Positions 5,655 through 30,290 of a stretch of 64,000 nt of DNA are shown piece after piece. The stretch lies in assembly GCA_031291955.1 (NCBI GenBank), contig JARLIA010000005.1, forward strand, positions 74,034-138,033, given 5' to 3'. Under the pieces are notes generated by a model that was not told the DNA's origin, searched no databases, and was given only the letters and a program-made list of their open reading frames with translations. Source of the stretch: Minisyncoccota bacterium. Its GTDB lineage: Bacteria; Patescibacteriota; Minisyncoccia; Moranbacterales; UBA2206. The stretch's first letter is position 1, and each line of letters begins with the position of its first letter. The position numbers and the translations under genes were made by a program.

Positions 5655-5691
5655 AGTTAGGTAATAATTTTTTAATTTAAAATTTTATTTG

Positions 5692-7867: not shown

Positions 7868-9259
7868 TTATTTAGAGGTTTTTTTGTCCCGGTTGTAGAC
7901 GTCTTCATAGCGGATAATGTCATCTTCGCCCAGGTAGCTTCCGGTTTGGACTTCGATGATTTCCAGATTTATTTTGCCGGGGTTGCTGAGGCGATGTTTG
8001 TTGCCCATCGGAATAAAAGTACTTTCGTTTTCATGGAGGGTGATTTCTTTTTCACCGTTGACGATTTGGGCCGTCCCATAGACCACGATCCAGTGTTCGG
8101 CCCGGTGATTGTGGGACTGCAGGCTCAATTTGGCGCCGGGGTAAACCGTGATTTTTTTCACCTGGTGCTGCGAGCCGGCGATCAAGACTTCATATTTCCC
8201 CCAGGGGCGGTGGACGATGATGTTATGCTCCAGTTCCGGCATCTTGTTTTCCTTGAGATAATCAACTATCTTTTTGACGTCCTGGCCGCAGCCTTTCCGG
8301 TGGACCAGGATGCTGTCGGTGTTTTCCACAATAACCAAGTCTTTCACGCCAACGGTGGCAATCAGTTTGTTGCCGGCCGAAAGGGCGTAGATGTTGTCGG
8401 AATCGACGGCGACAGTGCGGGTGCGGTTGTCTTTGCCTTGGATCTCGCTCAAGTTTTCGAACGAGCCGATGTCGCTCCAACCGAAGTTGCCTTCAAAAAC
8501 GACCATGGTTGTAGATTTTTCACTGATAGCGTAGTCGATGGAAGTGGACGGAAGGTTAGAAAAATTTTTAAGCAGTTCAGAGAGACTTCCTGCGGCAATT
8601 TTGGAAATTTCCGGCGCGTGAAGAGCCAGTTCCCGCCAGAAGGCGGCCGGTGTAAAGAGATACATCCCGCCGTTCCAGACGTAAGCGCCCGAGGCTAAAT
8701 ATTTTTCGGCCGTTTCCTTATCTGGTTTTTCGGAAAAACCGGAAACAGTGGAATAGGCACCCTTGTCTTGGTCTTTTTTAATGTAACCGTAGCCGGTTTC
8801 CGGTCGGGTGGGCGTGATGCCGATGGTGCCGATGTTGGCGCCGACGTTTTCAAAGGCGTTTTTTAGGACGGCTAGATATTTCTCCCGATCGCCGATGTAG
8901 TGGTCGGAAGGCAAAAATGCGATCGGTTCGTTTTTCCCGACGCCGAATTTTTCTTCCATATATTTAACAGCGAGCGTGATAGCCGGCGCGGTATTGAGGC
9001 TTTCTGGTTCCACGATGATTTGCGTTTCGTTGAAATCTCCGTTTTCCATTTCCTTGATCTGGTTGGCCACATTGAAAAAACTTTCGTAATTAGTGATGAA
9101 AAAAATGTGGTCGGCCGGCATGAGAGCCCGCATCCGGGAGTATGTTTCCTGGATGAGTGAACGATCGCTGAAAAGGTCGAGGAATTGCTTGGGGAAATTT
9201 TTTCGGGAAAGCGGCCAGAGGCGCGAGCCCGATCCGCCGCAAAGAATGACGCTATACAT
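7868..9259 (-). CDS. manC: Mannose-1-phosphate guanylyltransferase / mannose-6-phosphate isomerase (bifunctional, type II PMI cupin C-terminus)
   Basis: MYSVILCGGSGSRLWPLSRKNFPKQF is the nucleotidyltransferase signature. A cupin domain with HxH occurs near the C-terminus. Confidence 0.85.
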   Translation of the reverse strand: MYSVILCGGSGSRLWPLSRKNFPKQFLDLFSDRSLIQETYSRMRALMPADHIFFITNYESFFNVANQIKEMENGDFNETQIIVEPESLNTAPAITLAVKYMEEKFGVGKNEPIAFLPSDHYIGDREKYLAVLKNAFENVGANIGTIGITPTRPETGYGYIKKDQDKGAYSTVSGFSEKPDKETAEKYLASGAYVWNGGMYLFTPAAFWRELALHAPEISKIAAGSLSELLKNFSNLPSTSIDYAISEKSTTMVVFEGNFGWSDIGSFENLSEIQGKDNRTRTVAVDSDNIYALSAGNKLIATVGVKDLVIVENTDSILVHRKGCGQDVKKIVDYLKENKMPELEHNIIVHRPWGKYEVLIAGSQHQVKKITVYPGAKLSLQSHNHRAEHWIVVYGTAQIVNGEKEITLHENESTFIPMGNKHRLSNPGKINLEIIEVQTGSYLGEDDIIRYEDVYNRDKKTSK

Positions 9260-9279
9260 ATCGATAAATTTATTTGTTA

Positions 9280-10839
<1,560 letters not shown>

Positions 10840-10850: not shown

Positions 10851-12665
10851 ATGTCGCCAAAACATATCGCCATTTTGGATTTCGGTTCGCAATATACCCA
10901 TCTTGTCGCCAGAAACATTCGCGAGTTTGGCGTTTTAGCCAAAATTTATCCGACCGACGTGCCGGTTGAAGACTTGAAAGACGCCGAGGGAGTGATTCTT
11001 TCCGGCGGTCCGCAGGCAGTGTATGTCGAAAATTCACTTACTATTGATCCGGATATTTTGAACTTAGGCGTGCCGGTCCTGGGGCTTTGTTACGGACATC
11101 AGTTGTTGGCGCATATCCTGGGCGGGGAAGTGTCGTTGGGAAAAGTAAAAGAGTTTGGTAAGGCAAAATTGACCATCTTAAAGGACAGCCTCATTTTCAG
11201 AGACATCGTCCAAGAGTCGCAGGTCTGGATGAGTCACGGTGACGCAGTCGTCAAAGTGCCGGCTGGATTTGAAATCATCGGAACGACCGTCGATTGTCCG
11301 GTGACGGCTATGGTCGATCCGGCGCGGAAATTTTACGGATTTCAATTTCATCCGGAAGTGGCGCATACGCAAGAAGGCAAAGTCATGTTGTCTAATTTTG
11401 TCCTGGATATTTGCCAAGCGGAAAAAAACTGGCGCGTTGAGAATCTGGTTGACGATCTTTTGGAGAGAATAAAAAAGCAAGTGGGTGAAAAAAAAGTTTT
11501 CATTCTTATGAGCGGCGGCGTCGATTCCAATGTGGCTTTTGCTCTCCTCACTCGGGCGCTCGGTGCTGAGCGGGTGTTGGGACTCTACATCGACACTGGT
11601 TTTATGCGGCAAGACGAGTCGGCGGAAATAAAGCGAGGGTTTGCGCTGGCCGGATTTGAAAACATTCGGACGGTGGACGCCAGCGCCGATTTTTATGCCA
11701 AATTGGAAAATATTTATGAACCGGAGAAGAAAAGAAAAATTATCGGACAAGCCTTTTTGGAAGTTAAGGATAAAATTTCTCAGAACTTAGGACTTAATCC
11801 GGACGAGTGGCTGTTGGGCCAGGGGACGATTTATCCTGACACCATCGAATCGGGCGGCACCCGAAACGCTGACAAGATCAAGACCCACCACAATCGGGTG
11901 GACGCCATTGCCGAAATGATCGAAAAAAGCTTGGTGGTGGAACCCTTGGTGGATTTCTATAAAGATGAAGTGCGGCGCTTGGGGAAATTGCTGGGTCTTC
12001 CGGCGGACCTGATCAACCGCCATCCTTTTCCCGGACCAGGATTGGCCATTCGGACGCTTTGCCGTTCATTGGACCAGGAAGAAAATCTGGTTTTAGTCGA
12101 GCGGAAAGCGGAAGAATTTATTCACAAGAATTTCAAAAATATTTTCAACCGCGTTCTGCCGGTCCGCTCAGTCGGTGTCCAGGGAGACAATCGCACTTAT
12201 TCCCATCCCGTGGCGATCTGGGGCGAGTGCGACTGGCAAAAACTCGGAGAAATTTCCGCGGCGATCACCAATAGCACTCCGGAGATAAATCGGGTGCTCT
12301 TGCTTTTGAACCCGGGAGAAAAAAACGAACTCTTGTCGTCCGGAGAAAATTCATATCTTACTCGGGAAAGAGTGGAAAAATTGCGCCGCATCGATGAAAT
12401 AGTCAATCGGAGCATTAGAGAAGTGGGAATTTACGATTCCATCTGGCAGTTTCCGGTTGTCCTAATCCCAGTCACGGACGAAAGAAAAAAAGAATCAATC
12501 GTGCTTCGGCCGATCAATTCCCGGGATGCCATGACCTTGGATTTTTTTCAAATGGATAAAAAATTGCTGGAAAAAATTACCCAAGATATCTTAGCCACCG
12601 GAGAGATTGGCTATGTCTTTTATGATCTTACTAATAAGCCGCCAGGTACGGTGGAATGGGAATAA
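10851..12665 (+). CDS. guaA: GMP synthase (glutamine-hydrolysing)
   Basis: An N-terminal GATase is present (LGLCYGHQLL), followed by the ATP pyrophosphatase P-loop SGGVDSNVAF and a C-terminal dimerisation domain ending TVEWE. Confidence 0.9.
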   Translation: MSPKHIAILDFGSQYTHLVARNIREFGVLAKIYPTDVPVEDLKDAEGVILSGGPQAVYVENSLTIDPDILNLGVPVLGLCYGHQLLAHILGGEVSLGKVKEFGKAKLTILKDSLIFRDIVQESQVWMSHGDAVVKVPAGFEIIGTTVDCPVTAMVDPARKFYGFQFHPEVAHTQEGKVMLSNFVLDICQAEKNWRVENLVDDLLERIKKQVGEKKVFILMSGGVDSNVAFALLTRALGAERVLGLYIDTGFMRQDESAEIKRGFALAGFENIRTVDASADFYAKLENIYEPEKKRKIIGQAFLEVKDKISQNLGLNPDEWLLGQGTIYPDTIESGGTRNADKIKTHHNRVDAIAEMIEKSLVVEPLVDFYKDEVRRLGKLLGLPADLINRHPFPGPGLAIRTLCRSLDQEENLVLVERKAEEFIHKNFKNIFNRVLPVRSVGVQGDNRTYSHPVAIWGECDWQKLGEISAAITNSTPEINRVLLLLNPGEKNELLSSGENSYLTRERVEKLRRIDEIVNRSIREVGIYDSIWQFPVVLIPVTDERKKESIVLRPINSRDAMTLDFFQMDKKLLEKITQDILATGEIGYVFYDLTNKPPGTVEWE

Positions 12666-17208: not shown

Positions 17209-17457
17209 TCAACGGCTTTTATCGCTGGCCCTTGGTTTTGTTTTCTTAATGATTATTTCTCTAATTTTCAGGACGCTTTTGCCCGAGACTGGCATTTTCG
17301 GTTTCTTCTTGTTTTCTCGCTTCTCAGCCCCGCCTGCCGCGCTATGCCGCCAATAATCATTTTCATATTGACTGGCAAAGTTTTTGTCTAGCATTAACCC
17401 TTTGAAGTTATCCCCAGACGCGGCATTGCGGGCAGGTTTTGTTTTTTTGGCAGACAT
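17209..17457 (-). CDS. Hypothetical basic small protein (82 aa)
   Basis: ORF only. Confidence 0.3.
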   Translation of the reverse strand: MSAKKTKPARNAASGDNFKGLMLDKNFASQYENDYWRHSAAGGAEKRENKKKPKMPVSGKSVLKIREIIIKKTKPRASDKSR

Positions 17458-17506
17458 GATTTAATTATAGCACAAGTCGTGGAACGCAAAACACGAAAGC
17501 GAAAAC

Positions 17507-17534
17507 TTGACGAGGATGGCGGTAGTGTTATAAT
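17507..17534 (+). promoter_or_regulatory. Near-consensus sigma-70-type promoter (TTGACG, 16-nt spacer, TATAAT)
   Basis: TTGACG lies at 17507-17512 and TATAAT at 17529-17534. It lies upstream of the 17554 ORF and uvrB. Confidence 0.45.
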
Positions 17535-17553
17535 AACATGCGATTTTAATCTT

Positions 17554-17838
17554 ATGGAATTCCATAACATTAAAAACGAAGCCGGTTCTAATGGTTTTAT
17601 TCTCTCATCTTCGCGCTGGATAAAAAAGAATCCGAAACTGGCCGGGAATGTTCGCGACTGCGCGGATGTGACGCAATTGGTGTGCTTAGCTAATCTTGAA
17701 AATCTTAACGCCGAATATATCCGCGCCGGATTGCCGCAAAAAGAGCGATTGCTAAACCTGAACCAAAGCGCCATTTCCCAAATGAAATCGTTGGCGGACA
17801 GTCCGGGAATCAGGAAGTTGGAAAACAAAAAATTTTGA
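17554..17838 (+). CDS. Hypothetical protein (94 aa)
   Basis: The listed ORF was trimmed to the first ATG downstream of the predicted promoter. Confidence 0.35.
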   Translation: MEFHNIKNEAGSNGFILSSSRWIKKNPKLAGNVRDCADVTQLVCLANLENLNAEYIRAGLPQKERLLNLNQSAISQMKSLADSPGIRKLENKKF

Positions 17839-17845
17839 CAAGTTT

Positions 17846-20068
17846 ATGGAAAACAAATTCAAAATATCCTCCAAATTCAAGCCCGAAGGCGATCAGCCGC
17901 AGGCGATTGAAAAATTGACCGCGGGGCTTGAGGCTGGAAAAAAGTTCCAGACGCTTTTGGGCGTGACGGGGTCGGGGAAGACTTTTACCATTGCCAACGT
18001 CATTGAAAATATCCAAAAACCGACTTTGGTCATTGCGCCCAACAAGACTTTGGCGGCGCAACTGGCGCAGGAATTTCGGACTTTCTTTCCCAAAAGCGCG
18101 GTGGAATATTTCGTTTCCTATTATGATTATTATCAGCCGGAAGCCTACATCGCTTCCTCCGACACATACATCGAAAAGGAATCCCAGATCAACGACGAGA
18201 TCGACCGGCTTCGCCACGCGGCCACCGCGGCGCTCATGAGTCGCCGCGATGTCATCATTTGCGCTTCGGTGTCGTGTATCTACGGTTTGGGCAGCCCGGA
18301 ATATTATCGGAATATTACGCTGGAATTGGCGGTGGAGGACGGTTATTCGCAGGTTCGGGCGTCCACGCCCGAACCGCATAGTCCTGGTAAAACAAAATTA
18401 TCAGTCAAATCTGAATCGAAAATTTCCGCAGATAATAAAAAATTACCAGAAATGGCAGGTTCAATCGGGACGATTGAACCTGCAAAAAAAAATAATAGGG
18501 ACGAGATTGTAAAAAAATTGATCGACATGCAATATAATCGGAGCGATGTTTTGGCGCGGGGGAAATTCCGGCTGACCGGGAATACTCTGGAAATTATGCC
18601 GCCCGGACGGGAAATTGTAACGAGGATTGAAATGGAAGGGGGCAGTATTAAAAAAATATTCGAGTACGATTTTCTTACCGGCGAGGAACTGGGAAAGCTG
18701 GAAAAAGCGGTCATCTATCCAGCCAAACATTTCGTGGTGCCCGAACCGGTGATGGAAGGCGCTTTGGAAAAAATTCAAAAAGAAATGGAAGAGCAAGTGG
18801 AATTTTTCAAGCGTCAGGGAAAGATTCTGGAAGCGGAAAGGATTTCCCGTCGGACGCGCCAGGACATTGAAATGATGAGGGAAATCGGCTACTGCAATGG
18901 AATTGAAAACTATTCCCGCTTTCTCACTGAACGCCAGCCCGGTGAACCCCCCTACACTTTGATCGATTATTTTCCCGACGATTTTCTCATGGTGATTGAC
19001 GAATCGCATGTGACCGTGCCGCAACTCAACGGAATGTATAACGGCGACCACGCCCGGAAAGTCTCACTGATCGACAACGGCTTCCGCCTGCCTTCGGCTT
19101 TTGATAACCGCCCGCTTAAATTTCCGGAGTTCGAGAAAAAAATAAACCAGCTGATTTTCACGTCGGCGACACCGGCAAAATATGAAATGGAAAAATCAAA
19201 AATAGACCCCCTCTCCCGTAATCGGGAGAGGGTTGGGGAGAGGGCAACGCGGAACTCGGCGCCCTCTCTGTCGCGAGTACGCGACATCTCTCCCGAGTAC
19301 GGGGGAGAGGGAAATATTGTGGAACAAATTATTAGGCCGACCGGACTGATTGATCCAGAGCTGGAAATCAAGCCGACCAGAGGACAGGTGAAAGATGTGA
19401 CGGAGGAGATCAAAAAAATAATCGCCCGGAAGGAGCGGGTGCTTATCACCACGCTGACTAAAAAAATGGCCGAAGACTTGTCGGATTTCTTGAAAGAGAG
19501 CGAAGTGAAAGCTGAATATCTCCATTCCGGCGTGGACACTTTGGACCGGGTGCGGATTTTGGAACAATTGCGCCGGGGAAAATTTGATGTTCTGGTCGGA
19601 GTAAATTTGCTGCGGGAAGGGCTCGATCTTCCCGAAGTTTCTTTGGTGGCGATTCTCGACGCGGACAAAGAAGGATTTTTGCGGAGCGAAACGTCGCTCA
19701 TCCAAACCATCGGCCGCGCCGCGCGGAATGTCAAAGGAAAAGTTATTCTCTACGCCGACACCATTACCGGTTCGATGAAACGAGCTATCGACGAGACAAA
19801 CCGTCGCCGGGCAATCCAGACGGAATATAACAAAAAACATCGTATCACTCCAAAAACCATCAAGAAGAAAATCCAGTCGATCGTCGACCATGAAATCAAA
19901 CCTCAGGTGACGCGCGACTTTTCCCAATTGGAATCATTGGAGGATATGGCCGGCTACATTAAACAACGCGAGCGCGAAATGAAAGACGCGGCCCGGAATT
20001 TGGAATTTGAAAAAGCGGCGATCATCCGGGACGAGATAAGTGAGTTGAGGAAGCTGCAGATAAAATAG
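17846..20068 (+). CDS. uvrB: Excinuclease ABC subunit B, with two in-frame palindrome-bearing insertions
   Basis: Motifs present: GVTGSGKTF, the beta-hairpin region YVSYYDYYQPEAY, the helicase motifs, and the C-terminal UVR domain AAIIRDEISELRKL. The protein is 740 aa, against a typical ~660. Confidence 0.95.
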   Translation: MENKFKISSKFKPEGDQPQAIEKLTAGLEAGKKFQTLLGVTGSGKTFTIANVIENIQKPTLVIAPNKTLAAQLAQEFRTFFPKSAVEYFVSYYDYYQPEAYIASSDTYIEKESQINDEIDRLRHAATAALMSRRDVIICASVSCIYGLGSPEYYRNITLELAVEDGYSQVRASTPEPHSPGKTKLSVKSESKISADNKKLPEMAGSIGTIEPAKKNNRDEIVKKLIDMQYNRSDVLARGKFRLTGNTLEIMPPGREIVTRIEMEGGSIKKIFEYDFLTGEELGKLEKAVIYPAKHFVVPEPVMEGALEKIQKEMEEQVEFFKRQGKILEAERISRRTRQDIEMMREIGYCNGIENYSRFLTERQPGEPPYTLIDYFPDDFLMVIDESHVTVPQLNGMYNGDHARKVSLIDNGFRLPSAFDNRPLKFPEFEKKINQLIFTSATPAKYEMEKSKIDPLSRNRERVGERATRNSAPSLSRVRDISPEYGGEGNIVEQIIRPTGLIDPELEIKPTRGQVKDVTEEIKKIIARKERVLITTLTKKMAEDLSDFLKESEVKAEYLHSGVDTLDRVRILEQLRRGKFDVLVGVNLLREGLDLPEVSLVAILDADKEGFLRSETSLIQTIGRAARNVKGKVILYADTITGSMKRAIDETNRRRAIQTEYNKKHRITPKTIKKKIQSIVDHEIKPQVTRDFSQLESLEDMAGYIKQREREMKDAARNLEFEKAAIIRDEISELRKLQIK

Positions 20069-20217
20069 TGAAAAAAGTTATCCACAGGAGGGCGCTTGCT
20101 CATTCTTGTCGGAGTTCTATAATTGAAACAGGCAAGGTTTGGAAACAAAGATACAATTAATGTTTCCGCGTATGAAATGCTATTTGGCTGGAAAATTAAA
20201 TGGCATTGCAATCATAA

Positions 20218-20244
20218 TGAACACGTTTTAGGCGTGTTTTTTTG
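20218..20244 (+). terminator. Rho-independent terminator downstream of uvrB
   Basis: AACACG-TTTTAGG-CGTGTT is followed by TTTTTTTGTT. Confidence 0.45.
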
Positions 20245-20257
20245 TTCCCCGAAAACC

Positions 20258-20286
20258 CCTTGCAATTTTTCTCGAAACGTGCTATA
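20258..20286 (+). promoter_or_regulatory. Candidate promoter (TTGCAA, 17-nt spacer, TATAGT)
   Basis: The elements are visible in sequence. It would drive the ~330-nt structured region below. Confidence 0.35.
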
Positions 20287-20292
20287 GTCGGC

Positions 20293-20620
20293 CGTTAGGA
20301 TAGGAAGATGGTTCTTTCAAAACTTGGTGCGTTTCAATTCTTAAATTAAACTTAGCTGTCTCACTAAAGACAATATGTATGGATGTTATTTTTAGCGAGG
20401 CAGTTAAGTTCTCAATATAAATTTTGCTCGCAGGAGCCACTTGAGCGAAGCACTCGTGGCATTTATCCGAAAGGATTTATACCATGCGCTCGGGAAAGGC
20501 CACTTCTGGGAAGCACTCGCGGCGGAAATCTCACCGTGCCCTAAAGGAGAGAAAAATTTATCTCTGCCAAGCCTCCGGGAAAGAAAGACATGTCTTTCTT
20601 TCCCATCCTCATTTTTGTTT
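20293..20620 (+). other. Candidate structured RNA or riboswitch-like leader: promoter, internally repeated ~60-nt unit, GNRA hairpin, terminator hairpin
   Basis: Two copies of GCCACTT..G.GAAGCACTCG.GGC are present. There is a GAAA-tetraloop hairpin ATCCGAAAGGAT. A perfect 14-bp hairpin GGGAAAGAAAGACA/TGTCTTTCTTTCCC with a T-rich tail lies at 20582-20615. No protein homology is evident for ORF 20441-20653. Confidence 0.3.
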
Positions 20621-20677
20621 GATTATACGGAAAAAGCAGTTATGCAGTTATAAAGTTTATTAGGAAAGGAGTTTGCC

Positions 20678-22103: not shown

Positions 22104-22150
22104 GAATCCTTAAAGATTCGCTCTTATTATTATTCGCTTTAATTCGCTCA
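22104..22150 (+). terminator. Hairpin terminator after the dsbA-like gene
   Basis: AATAAGAGCGAATC-CTTAAA-GATTCGCTCTTATT. AGCGAAT/ATTCGCT repeats recur around it. Confidence 0.4.
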
Positions 22151-22241
22151 TCATTTGCGATTAGTTATCCACAGCCGGCGCTTGCGATGATATTTAATCA
22201 GTGCTAGAATAACACTGTAATAAACTTAGATAATAAAAAAT

Positions 22242-22919
22242 ATGCAAAACACACAATCGCTTACCGGAAAGCAAAAGAACCTGCTCGAAACGATCCGGGA
22301 ATATGTTGACCAGCGAAATGAAAATCCGACCAGTTATCGCCTGCATAAATACTTGGAAGCGCAGGGCGTGAGAGACAGTTTGAAGTCTGTCATGCAAGTC
22401 ATTGAAGCTTTGGAGAAAAAAGATCTGGTGAAACGTGACGGCGACAAGCGGCTCTATCTCATTGAGAACGGCAATTATGCCAATCTGAAAAACATTTTTT
22501 CCGTGCCGGTCTATGGCTTGGCCTCTTGCGGCGAAGCCTTGGCCTACGCCGAGGACAACGTGGATGGGTTTTTGCAAATCTCCAAAGCCTTGTTTCGCGG
22601 GGCCGACTCGGCCAAACTTTTCGCCGTCAAAACTTTGGGTGATTCGATGGACAAAGATGGCATAAACGATGGCGATTACGTTATCTTTGAAAAATACGAA
22701 TACGACAAAGGAGAGGAGCTGGAAGGGAAAATCGTGGTGGCGGTCATCAATGGAATGGCGACGATCAAGAGATATAAAAAAGTGAGCGACGAAATCATCG
22801 GTCTTTTCCCGCGCTCGAAAAACACCGTCCACCAGCCGATCTTCATCCATTCTTCCGACTCGATCCTGGTCGCCGGGATTTTCCGGAAAGTGCTGCCGGT
22901 GAAATACGTAAGTTTGTAG
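22242..22919 (+). CDS. lexA: LexA repressor (S24 peptidase)
   Basis: An N-terminal winged-helix DNA-binding domain is present. The catalytic Ser lies in GDSM and the catalytic Lys in ATIKRYKK. A cleavage-site-like LASCG is present. Confidence 0.85.
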   Translation: MQNTQSLTGKQKNLLETIREYVDQRNENPTSYRLHKYLEAQGVRDSLKSVMQVIEALEKKDLVKRDGDKRLYLIENGNYANLKNIFSVPVYGLASCGEALAYAEDNVDGFLQISKALFRGADSAKLFAVKTLGDSMDKDGINDGDYVIFEKYEYDKGEELEGKIVVAVINGMATIKRYKKVSDEIIGLFPRSKNTVHQPIFIHSSDSILVAGIFRKVLPVKYVSL

Positions 22920-23014: not shown

Positions 23015-26000
23015 ATGGACAAAATCATCATAAAAGGCGCGCGGGAGCATAATTTGAAGAACGTCGACTTGGAGCTGCCGCGGAATAAATTTATCGTTTT
23101 TACGGGAATTTCTGGGTCAGGGAAGTCGACCATGGCTTTTGATACTATTTTTGCCGAGGGGCAACGGCGCTATCTCGAAAGTCTTTCCAGTTACGCTCGG
23201 CAGTTTTTGGGGCAAATGAATAAGCCTGACGTGGACTATATTGAAGGTCTGTCGCCGGCCATTTCCATCGACCAGAAAGCGGCGTCCCACAATCCGCGTT
23301 CGACGGTTGGAACGGTGACGGAAATCCACGATTATTTGCGATTGCTATATGCCAAGATCGGCCGGCCACATTGTCCGATCTGCTCCCGGGAAATTACGAA
23401 GTTGTCGACAGATGAGATTGTTGATCGGATTTTGGAGATGTGCGCCGCGAAACCTCATCCGCCCCGGAGTACTGGGGCACCTTCTCCTTATAAAGGAGAA
23501 GGAGATAATGGAAGGGGCTGTTCTATCGAAATTCTATCGCCGGTGGTTCGCCAGCGGAAAGGGGAATATTCGACGATGCTGGCTGAGATGTTCCGGCGGG
23601 GGTTTTCCCGCGCTTACGTCAATGGGGAAAAATACGAACTGTCGGCCAAGATCGGAGACGAGTTGGAATTGGCCCGCTACAAAAAACATAATATTGATAT
23701 CGTGGTAGATGAGGTGGAGATATCTAGCGACAACATTTCGCGAATATTTGAAGGAGTGGAAAAGGCGCTGAAGTTGTCGGACGGACTGGTCAAGATAAGA
23801 TCCGAAATCCGAAATACGAAATCCGAAACAATGTCAAAATCAAAAATTAAAAATTCAAAACAAAACAATACGGAAATTGTTTTCAACCAAAAACTTTCTT
23901 GTCCGATCCATGAGATTGAGTTTCCGGAGTTGGAGCCGCGTTTGTTTTCTTTCAACAGTCCGTTTGGCGCTTGTCCGGCTTGCGAAGGATTGGGAACGAA
24001 AAAAGAAATCGACCCGGCGCTGGTGGCGCCGGATAAAAACAAAACGATTGCTGAGGGTGGCATCTTCCCTTGGAGCTACAAACGGAATAACTGGCAAGGG
24101 TCGGTTCTCCGGGCGGTTTGCAATCATTTCCACATCAAAGACAATGTGCGCCTCCGTGACCTTTCGGAAGATGACCTCAACATCTTAATGTTCGGCGGAC
24201 CGGATGCGACCGATATGATAGATAAGGAAGAAGCGGAAGAAATACCCGTCACTTTGAAATCAAAAACCGGTTCAAGCTGGAAATATTACATGACCTGGCG
24301 CGGAGCGGTCGGATATCTTCAAGATCGATATTTCAAGACCGATTCGGATGCGGTGCGGGCGGATATTGAAAAATATATGTCGCAAAATCCGTGTTCGGTC
24401 TGTCACGGCGCGCGTTACAAAAAAGAAGTCTTGCTGGTGACGGTCGGCGAATCCCGCCCGCAACGCTTCGCTAACGCAAGTGTTAGCTTGCGTAGCGATG
24501 CGGGCGGGAAAAATATTGTCGAAGTCTCAAATGTGTCTGTGGCTGAGACGCTTAAATTTTTCGAAAGACTGGAATTGAATAAAAATGAGCAGATCATCGC
24601 CGGGAGAATTTTGAAGGAAATTATTAATCGCCTAGGCTTTTTGGAAAACGTGGGACTGGGATATTTGACTTTGGCCAGATCCGCGGCGACACTAGCCGGC
24701 GGGGAAGCGCAACGGATCCGCTTGGCATCGCAAATCGGTTCGGGTCTCACCGGCGTTTTGTATATTTTGGACGAACCGTCGGTCGGTCTTCACTCGCGCG
24801 ACAACACTAAATTGCTCGAGACGCTTTTTCATCTGCGCGATCTGGGAAACACGCTAATCGTGGTTGAGCACGATGAAGAGACGATGCGGGAGGCCGACTA
24901 TTTGGTTGACATCGGACCGGGAGCGGGAAAATTGGGAGGTAAAATTGTGGCGCATGGCACGCCGGTAGAAGTTATTCGCGATAAAAAATCTTTAACCGCG
25001 GCATATTTGCGGGGTGACGCGAAAATAGAAATGCCGAAATTCCGCCGGCCAGTCAAGAATAAAAAAACGATTGTTGTCCGCGGCGCGCGCGAACACAATT
25101 TGAAAAACATTACCGTCGAGTTTCCTTTAAAAGTTTTGACGTGTGTGACGGGCGTGTCCGGCTCGGGGAAATCCACATTGGTAGAGGACATCCTTTATAA
25201 AGCCTTGGCGTCAAAAATCATGCGGACGCTCGACCGGCCGGGGAAACATTCGGAGATTGTCGGCACGCAATATGTTAACAAAGTGATCATGATCGACCAG
25301 TCGCCGATCGGTCGGACGCCGCGCTCCAATCCGGCGACTTATACCGGGCTCTTTACGCCGATCCGGGAATTATTTTCCCAGACCCGGGACGCCAAATCCA
25401 AGGGTTATGGTCCGGGGCGCTTTTCGTTCAACATCCGGGGCGGACGCTGTGACAACTGCCAAGGCGACGGCCAGCTTAAAATTGAGATGCAGTTCATGCC
25501 GGATGTCTATTTGCCTTGCGATGTCTGTCACGGAAAAAGATACAACAGTGAGACCTTGAAAGTGAAATACAAGGACAAAAACATTTCCGAAGTTTTGGAC
25601 ATGACGGTCAGCGAAGGGCGCGAGTTTTTTGAGAATTTTCCGGCTATTCACGACAAGCTGGCGGTTTTGGAAGACGTCGGCTTGGGCTATATCCAACTCG
25701 GGCAGTCCGCCACCACACTTTCCGGCGGGGAAGCGCAAAGGATAAAACTGGCCACGGAACTGGCAAGGAGGGCGACCGGCGACACTTTGTATATTCTGGA
25801 CGAACCGACGACTGGCCTCCATTTTGACGACATTAAAAAACTTTTGAATGTTTTGAACCGCTTGGTCGATGCCGGCAACACAGTGGTGGTGATCGAACAC
25901 AATTTGGACGTCGTCAAAACCGCCGATTGGATCATTGACTTGGGTCCGGAAGGCGGAGAAGGCGGCGGAAAAATTATCGTTACCGGTCCGCCGGAAGAAG

Positions 26001-26062
26001 TGGCGAAATATCATAAGGAAAGCTGGACGGGAAAGTATCTGAGAGATGTATTGAAAAAGTAG
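23015..26062 (+). CDS. uvrA: Excinuclease ABC subunit A, with two in-frame palindrome-bearing insertions
   Basis: Both ABC modules are present ([18 protein letters not shown]) with LSGGEAQRI signatures and Zn-finger Cys pairs. Length is 1015 aa. Confidence 0.95.
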   Translation: MDKIIIKGAREHNLKNVDLELPRNKFIVFTGISGSGKSTMAFDTIFAEGQRRYLESLSSYARQFLGQMNKPDVDYIEGLSPAISIDQKAASHNPRSTVGTVTEIHDYLRLLYAKIGRPHCPICSREITKLSTDEIVDRILEMCAAKPHPPRSTGAPSPYKGEGDNGRGCSIEILSPVVRQRKGEYSTMLAEMFRRGFSRAYVNGEKYELSAKIGDELELARYKKHNIDIVVDEVEISSDNISRIFEGVEKALKLSDGLVKIRSEIRNTKSETMSKSKIKNSKQNNTEIVFNQKLSCPIHEIEFPELEPRLFSFNSPFGACPACEGLGTKKEIDPALVAPDKNKTIAEGGIFPWSYKRNNWQGSVLRAVCNHFHIKDNVRLRDLSEDDLNILMFGGPDATDMIDKEEAEEIPVTLKSKTGSSWKYYMTWRGAVGYLQDRYFKTDSDAVRADIEKYMSQNPCSVCHGARYKKEVLLVTVGESRPQRFANASVSLRSDAGGKNIVEVSNVSVAETLKFFERLELNKNEQIIAGRILKEIINRLGFLENVGLGYLTLARSAATLAGGEAQRIRLASQIGSGLTGVLYILDEPSVGLHSRDNTKLLETLFHLRDLGNTLIVVEHDEETMREADYLVDIGPGAGKLGGKIVAHGTPVEVIRDKKSLTAAYLRGDAKIEMPKFRRPVKNKKTIVVRGAREHNLKNITVEFPLKVLTCVTGVSGSGKSTLVEDILYKALASKIMRTLDRPGKHSEIVGTQYVNKVIMIDQSPIGRTPRSNPATYTGLFTPIRELFSQTRDAKSKGYGPGRFSFNIRGGRCDNCQGDGQLKIEMQFMPDVYLPCDVCHGKRYNSETLKVKYKDKNISEVLDMTVSEGREFFENFPAIHDKLAVLEDVGLGYIQLGQSATTLSGGEAQRIKLATELARRATGDTLYILDEPTTGLHFDDIKKLLNVLNRLVDAGNTVVVIEHNLDVVKTADWIIDLGPEGGEGGGKIIVTGPPEEVAKYHKESWTGKYLRDVLKK

Positions 26063-26067: not shown

Positions 26068-27327
26068 ATGACGACCATCCTCCAAAAGCTGAAAAACCTG
26101 CCTCAATCACCGGGGGTGTATATTTTCTATGATAAAAATAGAAATATTTTGTACGTGGGAAAAGCGACGTCGCTTAAAGATAGGGTTGGTTCGTATTTTC
26201 AGAATAAGATTGGGGCGGTGCGGACGATTGAGATGTATATGAATGAAGTGACGGATCTGGAGATCAAGAAAACCGACACGGTTTTGGAAGCGTATATTTT
26301 GGAACAATCTTTGATCAAAAAACTTCAGCCGAAATATAACGCGATGGGGAAAGACGATAAGTCATTTACGTACGTACTTCTTTCTAAGGAAGAATTTCCG
26401 AGATTCGCGGTGGTACGGGAAACTGATTTGGATAGTGTAAAATCATCGCCCCGTGGGGGGCAAAAATCTTTGCCCCCCACGGCGAAGGTTTATGGTCCGT
26501 ATACGTCGAAACGGCAAATTGAGGCGGCCTTGAAAATCTTACGGAAAATTTTTCCCTATCACAACCGGCCGGAACATTCGGAGTCCCGGTGTTTTGATTA
26601 TCATCTTGGGCTTTGCCCCGGACCGTATGACGGGAAGATTTCCAAAAAAGAATACGTCAAAAATATCCGGGCGATAAAAATGATCTTGGAAGGGAAGAAG
26701 AAAGGACTTATAAACCGGATGAAAAAAGAGATGGAAGAATGTTCAGACAAGGCTGAATTTGAAAAGGCGGCGGAGGTGCGGAACAGGATTTTTGCGTTGC
26801 AACACATCCAGGACGTGGCGCTGATATCTGATCATAGAGACGCAATTAATCGCGTCTCTGTGGACGACGCAATGATGCGCATCGAAGGTTATGATATTTC
26901 CAATATTTCCGGGAAATTTGCGACTGGTTCGATGGTGGTGTTTGATAATTCAGACGGTGAAATGCAGCCGAATAAATCGCAATATCGTAAATTCAAAATC
27001 AAAAATGTTGAAGGCGCCAATGACGTGGGGGCAATGGAAGAAATGCTTACCAGGAGATTTCGGAACAATTGGCCGCGGCCGAATTTGATTTTGCTCGACG
27101 GCGGAGCCGGGCATTTGAATATGGCGCGGAAAGTCCTGCGGAATCACAAAATAGAAATTCCCTTGCTGGCGGTGGCCAAAGGGCCGGCGCGGAAAAAACT
27201 GGATCTGCGAAGTTTCGGGACCGTGCCGGAACTGCCAAAAAATATCATCGAACAAGTGAGAAACGAAGCGCATCGCTTCGCGATCAGTTATCATAGGAAA
27301 TTGAGAGGTAAATCGTTCACGGATTAA
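26068..27327 (+). CDS. uvrC: Excinuclease ABC subunit C, short form lacking the C-terminal (HhH)2 domain
   Basis: A GIY-YIG N-terminus is present (PGVYIFYDKNRNILYVGKA). A UVR motif (FEKAAEVRNRIFALQ) follows. The RNase-H-like endonuclease domain is present (ILLDGGAGHL). The protein ends at 419 aa. Confidence 0.8.
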   Translation: MTTILQKLKNLPQSPGVYIFYDKNRNILYVGKATSLKDRVGSYFQNKIGAVRTIEMYMNEVTDLEIKKTDTVLEAYILEQSLIKKLQPKYNAMGKDDKSFTYVLLSKEEFPRFAVVRETDLDSVKSSPRGGQKSLPPTAKVYGPYTSKRQIEAALKILRKIFPYHNRPEHSESRCFDYHLGLCPGPYDGKISKKEYVKNIRAIKMILEGKKKGLINRMKKEMEECSDKAEFEKAAEVRNRIFALQHIQDVALISDHRDAINRVSVDDAMMRIEGYDISNISGKFATGSMVVFDNSDGEMQPNKSQYRKFKIKNVEGANDVGAMEEMLTRRFRNNWPRPNLILLDGGAGHLNMARKVLRNHKIEIPLLAVAKGPARKKLDLRSFGTVPELPKNIIEQVRNEAHRFAISYHRKLRGKSFTD

Positions 27328-27407
27328 GCCTTGAAGTGGCCAATGCTTTGACATCTCTTGCCAAATCCTCTACAATACATCTCTAGTAAGCAATCTTCTT
27401 TCAAACT

Positions 27408-30221
27408 ATGCCCACTCAAAAATCTTCTCCTAAAAATACTTTCTCACTGAAGGATAAAATCGTCATCCGTGGCGCGCGGGTGAATAATTTGAAGAACATC
27501 GACGTGGACATTCCGCGGGATAAATTGGTCGTAGTGACAGGTCTTTCCGGGTCGGGGAAATCTTCTTTGGCTTTTGACGTGGTCTACGCCGAAGGCAATC
27601 GGCGGTATCTGGAAGGCATGTCGAGCTACGCCCGGCAGTTTTTGGATGTTTCGGCTAAACCGGACGTGGACAAAATAGAGAATTTGAGCCCGACCATCTC
27701 AATTGATCAAAAAAGCTTGAGTCGTTCACCTCGCTCGACGGTCGGGACGCTCACGGAAATTTACGATTATTTGCGAGTGCTCTACGCCAAAGTGGGAACG
27801 CCCTATTGTCCTCATTGTCTCTTGCCGATGGGGCGCAAAAAGAACCAGGAAATTTTGGAGGAAATTTTGGTTTTGCCGGAAAATACCCAAGTGGCGGTCC
27901 TGGCTCGGATAAAAAATGAAGGTCAGAGTGTTAAGGATATTCTCAAAAACATCAGTCAGCTTGGTTATGCCCGGGCGCGGGTTGGCGGTAAAATCGTCTT
28001 GATTGCCGACGCCTTGCTTTTTCCGGAAGAAAACTTGAGCGGCAACGTCGAAATCGTGGTTGACCGGATCAATCTCAAGAAAAAAAATCCCGATCACGAA
28101 CGGATGTTGGATTCTATTGAGACTGCTTTTAAATTGGGGAAAGGTTTTATGGCGGTCGCAATCGATAATGGTGAGAGCCGGATTTATAATCAAAATTTTG
28201 TTTGCAGCAACTGCTATTTCAAAATTTCGGAAATCACGCCCAAGAATTTTTCTTTCAACAGTCCCGAAGGCGCCTGCGAACATTGCGCGGGAATGGGTAC
28301 TATCCAGGAAGTGGACGAGGATCTGATCATTCCTAACAGAAATCTCACTTTGGCCGAAGGAGCTATTATGCCGCTCGCCAAGTCCGGCGGCCGGGCTGGG
28401 TATCTCGATACTCTCACCAAGATCGGCGAGAAAGCGGGTTTTTCCGTGAATGAACCGGCGCGGAACATTTCCAAGGAAAATTTGAAAGTTATTTTTCATG
28501 GTTTTGGTGTGCCTGGTACTCCTGGTTATTTTGAGGGAGTGGTGCCGATGATTCGAAAAAAATATACCGAAGCGGCCACTCAGACGGCCCGGACCGACAT
28601 CGAAAAATATATGCTGGAAAAAGATTGTCCCGAGTGTGGAGGCAAGCGTTTGAAAAAAGAATATTTATCCGTCTTGATGAGCGGGAAATCGATCGACGAT
28701 TTGGTCCGGATGGATATCGATACTCTCATTTTATTTTTAGAAAATTTACGGACTGCCGATTTGAGTGCCGCCAAAGCGGAAATCGTGGCGCCATTGGCAA
28801 AAGAAATGATCGCCAAAGCCAAGGCGCTCAAGAACGTCGGCTTGGAATATCTGTCACTTTCCCGCCGGGCCGATTCCATTTCCGGCGGCGAAGGTCAGCG
28901 CATCCGGCTCGCAACTCAAATTGGATCGGAACTTTCCGGTATTATCTATGTTCTGGACGAACCGTCTATCGGTCTCCATTCCCGAGACAATGAAAAGTTG
29001 ATCGACACGATGGAAAAGCTGAAAGAGAACGGCAATTCTCTGATCGTGGTCGAGCATGACAAAGACATTATCGAGTGCGCCGATTGGGTGATCGACATGG
29101 GTCCCGGGGCAGGGGAGTTCGGCGGGGAAGTTATCTTTTCCGGTTCGGTGAAAAAAATGGAGAGCGTCGCGACATCCACTGCCAAGTTCCTTTCCGGCCG
29201 GGAAAAAGTAACGGTTAAGAAGAAACCGCGAACGGCATCGAAGAACTTTTTGGAAATCCTGGGTGCCGCAGAACACAATTTGAAAAATATCGACGTCCGG
29301 ATTCCACTCGGCCGTTTTGTTGCCGTCTCGGGCGTGTCCGGTTCGGGGAAATCCACTTTGGTAACCGACATTCTGGCTCGAGAGCTGGCCCGGCATTTTT
29401 GGAAGGCTAAGAAAAATCCCGGAAAGCATGATAAAATCACTGGTCTTAACCGCTTGGATAAAGTGATTAATATCGATCAATCGCCGATCGGCCGGACGCC
29501 GCGTTCCAATGCCGCCACCTACACCGGTGTCTTTTCACTTATTCGGGAACTTTTCTCCGCCACCGAAGAGGCGAAAAAACGGGGCTACGATGCCAGTCGC
29601 TTCAGTTTTAATGTCCGGGGCGGCCGTTGCGAAGATTGCCAAGGCGACGGAACAAAAAAGATCGAGATGCATCTTTTGCCGGATATGTATGTCAAATGCG
29701 AAACTTGCCAGGGAACGCGCTATAACGCCAAGACGCTTGATATTGAATATCAGGGTGCTACCGTCGCCCAGGTGCTGGATATGAGTGTTTCCTACGCGCT
29801 TCGCTTTTTCCATAAATCGCCGCTTATCGCGGCTAAACTGAAAACGCTGGAAGAAGTCGGCCTGGGCTACATCAAACTGGGACAGAGCGCCACAAATCTT
29901 TCCGGCGGAGAAGCGCAGCGGATAAAATTGGCTACCGAGCTCGCCCGGAAATCGACCGGCAAGACTTTGTATATTTTAGATGAACCGACCATCGGGTTGC
30001 ACTTTGAAGATGTGCGGAAATTGCTTCAGGTGCTGGACGCGCTGGTCGAAAAAGGCAACACTGTTCTTGTGGTGGAACATAATTTGGACGTCATCAAGAA
30101 CGCCGACTGGGTGATTGATCTCGGGCCGGAAGGCGGAAACGGGGGCGGCGAAATTGTTTACGCCGGCGAACCGAAGGGGCTGAAGAAAGCGAAGAGGAGT
30201 TGGACAGGAAAATATCTGTAA
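27408..30221 (+). CDS. uvrA: Excinuclease ABC subunit A paralog (937 aa) without palindromic insertions
   Basis: Full two-module UvrA architecture is present ([18 protein letters not shown], two LSGGE signatures). Confidence 0.9.
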
Positions 30222-30223
30222 AA

Positions 30224-30290
30224 AATTTTCAATTTTCAATTTTCAATTTACAATCAATTTTCAATGATTCAATTTTCAATTCAGAAGACG
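30224..30290. repeat. (TTTTCAATT)n tandem array
   Basis: AAAATTTTCAATTTTCAATTTTCAATTT...; a near-identical array recurs at 56738-56870. Confidence 0.6.

Follow-up and report, generated by a model that had tools for sequence, protein, structure and literature searches.

Why does a perfect GC-rich palindrome lie in frame inside a DNA repair gene, and why do all three uvrABC genes of one locus carry such elements? A first-pass annotation of the 64,000-nucleotide stretch of DNA analysed here (the window) had offered three answers: hairpin-dependent regulation, targeting by an element, or chance. Small palindromic repeats, such as REPs and RPEs, are commonly viewed as extragenic or as neutral decoration. 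We consider it probable (about 0.7) that the hairpin of uvrC represents, in frame, one copy of a dispersed REP-like repeat, a small palindrome of 28 nt with GT[AG]G and C[TC]AC ends.

A perfect palindrome within the uvrC reading frame

The uvrC gene (26068-27327, + strand) encodes a 419-residue protein. Positions 26451-26482 form a perfect hairpin, CCGTGGGGGGCAAA-AATC-TTTGCCCCCCACGG. The stem contains 14 Watson-Crick pairs out of 14, including 10 G/C pairs (71% G+C), and the loop has 4 nt. As the first-pass annotation had described, the hairpin is in frame, where it codes for ...SSPRGGQKSLPPT..., and is located between the GIY-YIG (residues 15-91) and UVR (residues 213-246) regions. Its 28-nt core (26453-26480, + strand; GT[AG]GGGnnCAAAAATTTTTGnnCCC[CT]AC), a family-A palindrome as defined below, codes for PRGGQKSLPPT. 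A decayed 28-nt palindrome of a second family, B, is found further downstream (26834-26861, + strand; ATAGAGACGCAATTAATCGCGTCTCTGT, intact form GTAGAGACGCGATTAATCGCGTCTCTAC). It is also in frame, in the linker between the UVR and RNase-H-like domains, and codes for RDAINRVS.

Chance is ruled out as the source of the uvrC hairpin by four shuffle and count tests. Folding of the region as DNA gave z = -6.6, and none of 200 dinucleotide shuffles equalled it. The hairpin scores 38, whereas 30 block shuffles of the whole window never gave more than 30. The window contains 18 hairpins with a score of at least 24 where about 1.15 are expected. Synonymous-codon shuffles of uvrC never exceeded a score of 25 (0/100). 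Thus, the palindrome is a feature of the nucleotide sequence and not a by-product of the encoded peptide. The source is a metagenome-assembled genome, which could favor an assembly artefact. However, NCBI and Logan both contain the exact UvrC protein, which occurs on 2 contigs, making a single-assembly artefact unlikely. Moreover, related copies come from independent samples and the 32-nt element is presumably shorter than one sequencing read. Overall, an origin by chance or misassembly has a negligible probability.

No T-tract follows the stem on the sense strand, where the downstream sequence is CGAAGGTTTATGG, and no + strand terminator was called. An intrinsic terminator was rejected because of this missing T-tract and because terminator-like calls did not rise above the level of the shuffles. 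A search of Rfam with the hairpins and with the gene-free stretch at 20.1-21.0 kb gave no match.

Palindromes in uvrB and uvrA

The element announced for every uvrABC gene is indeed present in each of them. uvrB (17846-20068, + strand) encodes 740 residues for a base length of 652 residues in the clade. A first insertion of about 50 residues (insertion A, 18335-18490, + strand), directly before the UvrB_inter domain, has no counterpart in the 652-residue orthologue of locus L084. It contains two hairpins, at 18352-18375 (10 bp) and 18455-18483 (13 bp). Insertion B (19199-19312, + strand; 38 residues) separates the two helicase halves. It forms a compound nested hairpin (about 19205-19312) built on CCCTCTCCC/GGGAGAGGG motifs, with an RNA minimum free energy (MFE) of -72 kcal/mol over 141 nt. 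UvrB of P0123 and of P0124 also contains this element (PLSR.RER...SLSRVRDISPEY).

uvrA (23015-26062, + strand; 1015 residues) is separated by 5 nt from uvrC downstream. Its insertion 1 (23444-23512, + strand) is directly before the UvrA_inter domain and carries the hairpin 23480-23502, CCTTCTCCTT-ATA-AAGGAGAAGG, coding for HPPRSTGAPSPYKGEG. This element is also found in UvrB of several relatives, with an identical hairpin at L090:733-755. Insertion 2 (24449-24509, + strand; 19 residues) is a 58-nt imperfect palindrome (24452-24509) with perfect outer stems of 11 bp; it is absent in L084, L090 and L093. A middle insertion of 18 residues, SEIRNTKSETMSKSKIKN (23801-23854, + strand), is AT-rich and non-palindromic, showing that other repeat types also enter these repair genes.

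When the intragenic hairpins of the window are ranked by strength, the first six all lie in uvrB, uvrA and uvrC, and an independent MFE scan also placed these six at the top. The accompanying statement that only non-palindromic repeats occur elsewhere in the window needs correction, since we found about ten intergenic terminator-like hairpins, a hairpin in tsaD (51465-51497) and one at 17541-17578.

LexA-like boxes and SOS control

A lexA-like gene (Peptidase_S24; 22242-22919, + strand), itself hairpin-free, is located upstream of uvrA, and lexA, uvrA and uvrC look like one operon. A putative LexA box, AGTGCTAGAATAACACT (22200-22216, + strand), overlaps the -10 element of the lexA promoter and is conserved in L084, L090, L091 and L093. 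Using six lexA promoters, we derived the candidate box AGTGNTA-N3-TANCACT. It matches the window only at 22200 and 17524, neither of which is at a hairpin of a uvr coding region. The second match (17524-17540, 2 mismatches) covers the -10 element of a predicted promoter upstream of uvrB (TTGACG-16-TATAAT; 17507-17578, + strand), with the AT-rich hairpin 17541-17578 downstream. This promoter precedes a small + strand ORF (to 17838), then uvrB. A role of the hairpins as LexA operators was rejected, the candidate box of the lexA promoters being unlike every hairpin.

The predicted LexA-like boxes at the lexA promoter and at the promoter upstream of uvrB make the SOS control that had been proposed for these genes plausible. 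The part of the claim that ties the hairpins to SOS genes is weakened by an additional copy in a base-excision gene of the same genome (see below); the relevant category may thus be "repair genes" and not "SOS".

Two families of 28-nt palindromes

GTGGGGGGCAAAAATCTTTGCCCCCCAC, the core of the uvrC hairpin, is one member of family A, made up of perfect 28-nt palindromes with GT[AG]G...C[TC]AC ends. Such palindromes are found in uvrA, uvrB and uvrC of related genomes of the Candidate Phyla Radiation (CPR; Moranbacteria/Pacebacteria). Examples are GTAGGGGGCAAAAATTTTTGCCCCCTAC in uvrC of L090, GTAGGGAACAAAAATTTTTGTTCCCTAC in uvrC of L091 and L092, and GTAGGGGGCGAAAATTTTCGCCCCCTAC in uvrA of L090, a locus where uvrB, uvrA and uvrC each have one GTAG palindrome. 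Decayed copies are observed in L093 and L092, and perfect and decayed copies coexist. In the source genome, about 67 kb were examined, corresponding to the window and a 2.85 kb leftward extension. This DNA contains two family-A copies. The second one, CCGTAGGGAGCAAAAATTTTTGCCCCCTACGG, uses the other open frame; it is located shortly beyond the window, within the gene of a 3-methyladenine DNA glycosylase. The window copy has GTGG at its end, and the relatives and the glycosylase copy have GTAG. In every copy, GTAG is paired with CTAC at the opposite end. In an ungapped set of eight 28-mers (a joint MAFFT alignment of families A and B forced gaps), 7 of the 12 stem pairs vary on both arms, 96% of the cells are paired and no G-U intermediates are seen.

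Family A was revealed only by its translated peptide in UvrC homologues. Of the 120 closest ones, 13 have this peptide, which occupies two sites and is patchily distributed over the UvrC tree. The two closest UvrC relatives, P0002 and P0003, do not have the window's copy and show an AT-rich repeat at that site. Together with the perfect stem, this absence suggests that the copy in the window is a recent gain. In the JGI metagenome collection, the window stem GTGGGGGGCAAA-N4-TTTGCCCCCCAC had no exact match, and the looser pattern GGGGGGCAAA-N4-TTTGCCCCCC had four, all unrelated and terminator-like. The absence of the exact stem from this collection, and the fact that the window's uvrA and uvrB hairpins do not have GTAG ends, both count against a mobile repeat.

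Family B (GTAGAGACGC-N8-GCGTCTCTAC) is dispersed beyond this clade: 80 viral-contig loci together contain 105 copies. Most copies are intergenic, and some are in frame in linkers of portal, tape-measure, capsid and integrase genes. The viral contigs yielded no family-A copy, a further point against a mobile repeat. A search of INPHARED phages with a family-B 30-mer gave no match. GTAG-type palindromes were absent from all intergenic sequence surveyed, in the window as well as in the sampled CPR loci, whereas REPs are mostly extragenic; this observation also goes against a mobile repeat.

Insertion sites and reading frames

The copies are located at domain boundaries, in hypervariable inter-domain linkers whose length is free to vary among orthologues. 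The AlphaFold model of UvrC gives pLDDT values under 50 to residues 126-133 and 251-267 and predicts the hairpin-encoded peptide to be disordered. Both stop-free frames are in use, as shown by VETQNFASLQ versus RDAINRVS, and RGGQKSLPPT versus VGGKNFCSL. The hot spots of UvrB and UvrC host many unrelated inserts, including an AT-rich heptamer repeat located between genes in the window, and other palindrome families are found at the same linkers. With only family-A and family-B signatures counted, about 19 UvrC homologues out of 120 have a palindrome at the UVR/RNase-H point.

Comparison of filled and empty sites revealed no unambiguous target-site duplication; uvrA insertion 2 alone gave a hint, in the form of a possible GGC. 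There, the palindrome reaches into ancestral flank bases (GGGA). Because 28 nt is not a multiple of 3, every surviving insertion requires extra or lost bases. A Pfam scan of the window ORFs found no transposase of any kind, RAYT included. These three features, namely the element's length, the absence of a clear target-site duplication and the absence of a transposase in the window, are difficulties for a mobile repeat.

Preference for repair genes

In the window, 6 of the 8 intragenic hairpins fall within the 12% of coding DNA that corresponds to uvrA, uvrB and uvrC (binomial P = 6e-5). The concentration in these genes noticed by the first-pass annotation was replicated in seven related genomes: using database gene calls, 33 kb of nucleotide-excision repair (NER) genes contained 14 hairpins, while other coding DNA, amounting to 68 kb, contained 3 (P = 4e-5). 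A strong bias to uvrA, uvrB, uvrC and the glycosylase gene is real in the sampled DNA. In this clade of tiny uncultured bacteria, 28-nt palindromes are in frame almost only inside DNA-repair genes. More distant taxa with a short UvrC show a weak enrichment, with 0.116 hairpins per kb in uvrC, 0.030 in uvrA and 0.047 in other genes. There, the other hairpin-bearing genes are ordinary ones (transporters, MurB, MurJ, TyrRS). The bias thus belongs to the Moranbacteria-like clade. It could result from an insertion preference, for example for genes transcribed in the damage response, or from selection.

An internal control is provided by uvrA2 (27408-30221, + strand; 937 residues), a second full-length uvrA paralogue with the same domain architecture as uvrA and its own promoter (TTGACA-17-TACAAT, 27348-27376). 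The two paralogues adjoin, and only the copy in the putative lexA operon has hairpins; uvrA2 has neither hairpin nor insertion. Element-derived peptides were found in none of 120 uvrA2 homologues, and no hairpin was found in lexA and neighbouring genes. A passive trap alone leaves the 0/120 of uvrA2 unexplained despite the same architecture, which also speaks against a simple mobile repeat. Within the clade, hairpins may be missing from the same genes, as in uvrB of L084 (652 residues, no insert) and uvrC of L082.

UvrC lacks the (HhH)2 domain throughout the clade

The window UvrC contains GIY-YIG, UvrC_M, UVR and RNase-H-like endonuclease domains and passes the NCBIfam TIGR00194 equivalog cut-off (317 bits versus 285). 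We observed no Pfam match to HhH, and alignments to the C-terminal halves of UvrC in the PDB (3c65 and 2nrt) stop before the HhH part, in agreement with the earlier description of a 419-residue UvrC without (HhH)2. Among the window ORFs scanned, none was found to encode a separate HhH domain. All of the 120 closest UvrC homologues (363-509 residues) share this domain set, and UvrC is shorter than 520 residues in 65 of 74 related loci. The HhH-less UvrC is a clade-wide trait, separate from the hairpins and not special to the source genome. The protein resembles canonical UvrC by its GIY-YIG, UVR and RNase-H-like endonuclease domains and differs from it by the missing C-terminal (HhH)2. It differs from Cho, a shorter UvrC relative, by retaining the second nuclease domain. 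In E. coli UvrC, the HhH domain helps 5' incision on some substrates.

Origin of the palindromes

Among the three answers offered at the outset, targeting by an element is the best fit, the uvrC hairpin being part of a dispersed family of 28-nt palindromes. Location in linkers, use of two frames, stem changes on both arms and the patchy distribution over the tree fit REP-like mobile palindromes trapped in frame. Such palindromes would spread by copy-and-insert, possibly through a transposase of the RAYT or HUH type that works on hairpins in single-stranded DNA. An insertion would persist only if it preserved the frame, kept out of the frame that contains TAG and fell within a tolerant linker, and the survivors would be near neutral at the protein level.

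An alternative that we hold possible, at clearly lower odds, is a system directed at repair genes. Insertion machinery would home to damage-response genes, for example through single-stranded DNA exposed on induction, or the palindromes would act as cruciform or mRNA signals tuning excision repair. If true, a repair-directed system would explain the carriage by uvrA, uvrB, uvrC and the glycosylase gene, the absence from uvrA2, the repeated use of the same linkers and the bias in distant phyla. In its structure-signal version, nucleotide- and base-excision repair would be jointly tuned under minimal regulatory capacity. The specific proposal that the palindromes are functional cis-elements (cruciform or mRNA hairpin) co-tuning uvrA, uvrB, uvrC and the glycosylase gene appears unlikely. 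They would act via an RNase, a roadblock or translation pausing, for instance, and selection would maintain their palindromic form and keep them in linkers, the sole possible hosts in coding genes. The gene-specific enrichment repeated in relatives, the one-per-gene arrangement of L090, the compensatory changes on both arms, the hairpin-free uvrA2 behind its own strong promoter and the repeated use of the UVR/RNase-H point are all in its favor. However, many close relatives such as L084 (uvrB) and L082 (uvrC) do without a hairpin in the same gene, decayed copies persist, and the stems of the window's uvrA, uvrB and uvrC are wholly unlike. The absence of G-U pairs argues against selection at the RNA level, no hairpin resembles the LexA-like box or has a sense-strand T-tract, and family B also occurs in unrelated phage genes and intergenic DNA. 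Hairpin-dependent regulation, the first of the options offered, is therefore unsupported.

Two other explanations were considered. Hairpins could have arisen in place, by template switching or fold-back synthesis in variable linkers, without a mobile element. Template switching is a documented source of perfect hairpins (bioRxiv 10.1101/2023.04.19.537475); here the arms are perfectly complementary, the window variant is private, and the palindrome of uvrA insertion 2 extends into the ancestral flank. But different genes, sites and genomes share the 28-nt architecture, its ends and the central AAAAATTTTT, the source genome itself having them in a second gene, and identical 28-mers are found within unrelated flanks in the 80 viral loci. 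Local duplication is unable to yield this pattern, and we judge an origin in place improbable. Even less credit can be given to the idea that the palindromes are analogues of DNA uptake sequences, favoring re-acquisition of repair genes in bacteria with a competence pilus. The repair-gene bias does recall the DUS/USS of Neisseria and Pasteurellaceae (PMC2397512, PMC2346458), and the window codes for type IV pilus parts (T2SSE, T2SSF, PilM, PilN, pilins). Against this, uptake sequences are one short motif in hundreds of copies, also in terminators, whereas many different sequences are observed here, GTAG-type copies are missing from the intergenic DNA surveyed, and family A is limited to its two copies in 67 kb.

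The palindromes also matter for annotation. Peptides such as RDAINRVST, VETQNFASLQ and PSPYKGEG, and the length variation of conserved CPR proteins, are translated palindromes and not protein motifs. The well-defined insertion hot spots and the uvrA/uvrA2 control make an old curiosity testable. The choices raised are an insertion preference linked to the damage response, selection on repair capacity or expression, or linkers of essential genes that trap elements lost elsewhere.

Comparison with known repeats

Rickettsia palindromic elements (RPEs) are also palindromes in the reading frame of conserved genes, tolerated through their position on the protein surface, and uvrB of R. conorii is one of their hosts. 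According to a review, the RPEs first described measure about 150 bp (taken here as about 100-150 bp) and encode a conserved, family-specific peptide; the present elements are much smaller (28-60 nt), are read in two frames and do not share a conserved peptide. In comparison with MITEs, the whole element is here an inverted repeat, and it shows no unambiguous target-site duplication. DNA uptake sequences are likewise short repeats enriched in genes for DNA repair, recombination and replication, but they consist of one fixed motif of 9-12 nt at very high copy number, where we observe diverse palindromes in few copies.

The closest likeness is with GTAG-tagged REPs, GC-rich palindromes of 20-40 bp with GTGG variants in Opitutus terrae (Di Nocera et al. 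2013, PMC3733652). Several families of these REPs can be found per genome, with sub-families that differ by complementary stem changes (PMC3733652). The window element, a 28-nt core in a 32-nt GC-rich hairpin, shares the GTRG end and the two-arm stem changes (7/12 pairs). Differences concern the tag, which is unpaired at one end in REPs but pairs with CTAC here, making the whole 28-mer palindromic, and the stems, of 12-14 bp here versus mostly 6-9 bp in REPs. G-T pairs are frequent in REPs and absent here. Extragenic copies or a high copy number were not seen in the sampled CPR DNA, nor a RAYT among the window ORFs. The host belongs to the Candidate Phyla Radiation, which does not appear among the phyla named in the passages of the survey used here (PMC3733652). 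The same survey describes intragenic REPs in uvrA, uvrB and other repair genes of other phyla (PMC3733652). In some species such copies account for all REP-tagged ORFs, and a gene may contain two inserts. The bias of intragenic repeats to replication and repair genes was noted, without explanation, in this one survey of 2013; the present locus shows it in a very distant lineage with a small genome.

A perfect palindrome within uvrC

uvrC (26068-27327, plus strand) encodes a 419-aa protein in which Pfam recognizes GIY-YIG (aa 15-91), UVR (aa 213-246) and UvrC_RNaseH_dom (aa 264-406). The first-pass annotation described a perfect 14-bp GC-rich hairpin in frame within this gene, and we recover it at 26451-26482 as CCGTGGGGGGCAAA-AATC-TTTGCCCCCCACGG, with 10 G/C pairs and a 4-nt loop. 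It encodes the peptide SSPRGGQKSLPPT, at residues ~126-138. Chance, initially entertained as an origin, is excluded. Folded as DNA, the region gives z = -6.6 and none of 200 shuffles was equally stable; the hairpin scores 38, and no whole-window shuffle exceeded 30; and none of 100 synonymous-codon shuffles of uvrC scored above 25. The palindrome is thus a property of the DNA and not of the peptide. The exact UvrC protein is found in NCBI and Logan sources, on 2 contigs, which argues against a single-assembly artefact. The hairpin is best explained as a 28-nt palindrome, similar to repetitive extragenic palindromes (REPs), that was recently inserted in frame into a disordered linker.

The exact UvrC match is recorded under 'Candidatus Pacebacteria', with Moranbacteria as nearest relatives; the host is a bacterium of the Candidate Phyla Radiation (CPR). 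Domain analysis agrees with the earlier observation that this UvrC has no (HhH)2 domain, although it clears the NCBIfam uvrC cut-off. A separate HhH ORF was sought in the window and not found. UvrC proteins shorter than 520 aa are encoded by 65 of 74 related loci, including other CPR groups and Omnitrophota, Elusimicrobia and Lentisphaerae-type genomes. (HhH)2 is missing in all 120 closest homologues as well, and its absence is a lineage trait, unrelated to the hairpin.

Hairpins of the uvr locus

uvrB (17846-20068) is separated from lexA (22242-22919) by a gene-free gap of ~1 kb and a 345-aa ORF. uvrA (23015-26062) comes next, then uvrC. A second full-length uvrA paralogue, uvrA2 (27408-30221), lies directly 3' of uvrC and is followed by an ORF without assigned identity, then groEL. 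The order uvrB - lexA - uvrA - uvrC - uvrA2 - groEL is kept in relatives.

A sequence-only scan of the window found 18 strong hairpins against ~1.15 expected. Ten are intergenic and terminator-like and 8 lie within ORFs as first called. Six of these 8 belong to uvrB (3), uvrA (2) and uvrC (1), so that each uvrABC gene does carry one, as had been proposed. An independent sliding MFE scan returned the same six as the strongest intragenic structures of the window. One of the other two, at 17541-17578, directly follows a promoter-like site (17507-17534). It overlaps what is probably the start codon (ATG) of a small plus-strand ORF preceding uvrB, and the minus-strand ORF that contains it (17394-17828) is probably spurious. 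The small ORF (17479-17838, 119 aa from GTG or ~94 aa from ATG at 17554), located between the promoter with the LexA-like box and uvrB, matches nothing in Pfam or NCBIfam. The gene-free region 20100-20650 contains two promoter-like sites, strong predicted structure near 20351 and two terminator-like hairpins, at 20219-20239 and at 20577-20604, the latter a perfect 28-nt palindrome, GGGAAAGAAAGACATGTCTTTCTTTCCC. It has no Rfam match and may therefore encode unannotated small RNAs. Elsewhere in the window, two RNase J paralogues (599 and 607 aa) are found in tandem at 3855-5654 and 5692-7515, minus strand.

Alignment with structures solved for UvrA, UvrB and UvrC, and with an orthologue set of 86% identity (L084), places every uvr hairpin in a segment absent from the other proteins. 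In UvrB, inserts precede UvrB_inter (aa ~164-215) and the second helicase half (aa 452-489). In UvrA, one precedes UvrA_inter (aa ~144-166), another starts ~25 residues past the UvrA_DNA-bind domain (aa 479-497; domain, aa 333-453), and an AT-rich, non-palindromic insert directly follows UvrA_inter (aa 263-280). The UvrC inserts (aa ~126-138 and 255-268) lie between domains, and AlphaFold2 gives pLDDT <50 at residues 126-133 and 251-267. Among the 120 closest homologues, lengths range over 652-739 aa for UvrB and 363-509 aa for UvrC, with the variation clustered at the same insert points.

Residues 26-352 of TsaD (50700-51854, minus strand, 384 aa), 327 in number, align to 263 Pfam profile positions, hence ~60 extra residues. 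tsaD contains a near-perfect, AT-rich 15-bp hairpin (51465-51497) and short repeats (50827-50857) resembling those of a tRNA-synthetase gene at 1487-1531. In GMP synthase (10851-12665, plus strand, 604 aa), the C-terminal domain is matched as two stretches, which suggests another in-frame insertion.

Two families of 28-nt palindromes

Thirteen of the 120 closest UvrC homologues carry a version of the uvrC peptide RGGQKSLPPT, R(G/E)QKFL(P/F)PT, either at the same site or in the UVR/RNase-H linker. This recurrence is accounted for by palindromes of one family (family A, with GT[AG]G...C[TC]AC ends) in the DNA of five relatives. Copies occur in uvrC of L090 (GTAGGGGGCAAAAATTTTTGCCCCCTAC) and of L091 and L092 (GTAGGGAACAAAAATTTTTGTTCCCTAC), besides that of the window (GTGGGGGGCAAAAATCTTTGCCCCCCAC); L090 also has copies in uvrA (GTAGGGGGCGAAAATTTTCGCCCCCTAC) and uvrB (GTAGGGGTAATTCATGAATTACCCCTAC). 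All are 28 nt long, and slightly decayed copies are present in L093 and L092. When eight copies are aligned without gaps, both sides are changed in 7 of 12 stem pairs, 96% of cells are paired and G-U intermediates are absent, which points to symmetry maintained at the DNA level.

A second family, B (GTAGAGACGCGATTAATCGCGTCTCTAC, translated as RDAINRVS or VETRLIASL), occupies the UVR/RNase-H linker of uvrC in L001 and L081, and is decayed in the window (26834-26861). Family B is also widespread beyond this clade: its 28-mer, GTAGAGACGC-N8-GCGTCTCTAC, has 105 copies in 80 loci of IMG/VR viral contigs (37-63% G+C). Many of these copies are identical amid unrelated flanks. Most fall between genes, sometimes in clusters, and some are read in frame as part of linkers in Mu-like portal, tape-measure, capsid and integrase proteins.

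From these sequences we infer mobility rather than ancient conservation for these elements. A neighbour-joining tree of the 120 UvrC homologues shows a scattered distribution of the element families, at either uvrC site. At the position of the window's hairpin, the two closest UvrC relatives (79% and 74% identity) have an AT-rich heptamer repeat; the only element they have in common with the window is that of family B, at the other site. Together with the perfect stem, this suggests that the hairpin at 26451 is a recent gain. L092 carries the same sub-family twice, one copy decayed and one perfect. Elements are also shared across genes: HPPRSTGAPSPYKGEG, present in uvrA of the window, recurs in the UvrB of several relatives, and VGVQFIEP...GLINQTPT turns up among UvrB as well as UvrC relatives. 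On a Logan contig of the same genome (L094), 100% identical to window 1-10444 and reaching 2.85 kb past the window start, a family-A palindrome (CCGTAGGGAGCAAAAATTTTTGCCCCCTACGG, L094:12198-12229) lies ~2.3 kb outside window position 1. It is in frame in a gene for a 181-aa DNA-3-methyladenine glycosylase (L094:11991-12536, minus strand), read in the other stop-free frame as VGGKNFCSL. Family A is thus present in more than one copy in this genome, and the second gene to carry it likewise acts in repair.

The heptamer, (AATTTTC)n, forms arrays between genes in the window (30222-30274 and 56738-56790) and is in frame at the first uvrC site of the closest relatives (L081, L082), encoding QFSIFNQF. 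At this site, L084 has a composite palindrome (L084:10370-10425, GTAGGGGCAATTCATGAATTG...GGGCGGTTCATGAACCGCCCCTAC) with the appearance of a 28-nt element into which another has broken, or to which another has been fused.

Bias towards repair genes

The proposed concentration of hairpins in repair genes holds within the sampled DNA around the uvr locus. In the window and eight related loci, all sampled around that locus, hairpins with a score of at least 28 number 5 in uvrB (11.3 kb coding), 5 in uvrA (20.5 kb), 6 in uvrC (10.3 kb), 0 in uvrA2 (22.7 kb), 0 in lexA (4.0 kb) and 1 in all other genes (94.4 kb). In the relatives only, using the database's own gene calls, this threshold gives 10 hairpins in nucleotide-excision-repair (NER) genes versus 1 in other coding DNA. 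At a score of at least 24, the counts are 14 in 33.1 kb versus 3 in 68.1 kb (P = 3.7e-5). The events in these counts are not phylogenetically independent. Intact GT[AG]G-ended palindromes of 28-29 nt in ~1.5 Mb of fetched loci all lie in uvrA, uvrB or uvrC (8/8). The bias is weak in more distant taxa with the short UvrC.

uvrA2 has neither insertions nor hairpins. Element peptide signatures, defined on UvrB and UvrC inserts, occur in 39/120 UvrC, 19/120 UvrB and 0/120 UvrA2 homologues, and length spread (sd/median, 120 homologues each) is 0.055, 0.034 and 0.013, respectively. Both UvrA and UvrA2 clear a single UvrA equivalog model, and uvrA2 has its own near-consensus promoter, TTGACA-17-TACAAT (27348-27376), kept in relatives. 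The difference in hairpins is therefore more than a matter of protein architecture.

At 22200-22216, the -10 of the lexA promoter is overlapped by a palindromic candidate LexA box (AGTGNTA-N3-TANCACT) that is conserved in four relatives. Upstream of uvrB, by ~300 nt, the best promoter-like site has a copy with 2 mismatches (17524-17540) across its -10. uvrA comes after lexA, and uvrC starts 5 nt after uvrA. SOS-type control of uvrA, uvrB and uvrC is thus plausible, though unproven. None of the uvr hairpins resembles the candidate box or has a sense-strand T-tract. A DnaA-box-like motif, TTATCCACAG (22134-22143), lies a few bases upstream of the lexA promoter -35, as it does in 5/5 relatives read (L084, L090-L093), and recurs directly after uvrB (20078-20087), preceding another promoter-like site. 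Some relatives have small nuclease-type genes between lexA and uvrA (NYN domain; DUF559/Vsr-like; L090:5591-6106 and L091:5284-5643) that are absent in the window.

The repair-gene bias is real in the sampled DNA and agrees with an earlier unexplained report. It may stem from insertion preference, selection or differential retention.

Comparison with known palindromic repeats

Di Nocera et al. 2013 (PMC3733652) define GTAG- and CGTC-tagged REPs, with GTGG variants and sub-families showing complementary stem changes. Intragenic examples given there include R. conorii uvrB, Thioalkalivibrio uvrA and both Opitutus terrae uvrA genes, and further tagged genes encode UvrD, RecBCD, Pol I and DnaE2. 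Repair and replication genes are often the sole REP-tagged ORFs of a species, and the authors speculated on mutator effects (PMC3733652). The present elements share with GTAG-tagged REPs the GTGG variant, the complementary stem sub-families and intragenic copies in repair genes. They differ in that their GTAG end is paired and their stems are longer. No extragenic GTAG-type copy was seen in the sampled CPR DNA, nor any gene for a RAYT (Y1/HUH-type REP transposase) among the ORFs of the window scanned with Pfam. In their in-frame insertion into conserved genes they also resemble the Rickettsia palindromic elements, but they are far shorter.
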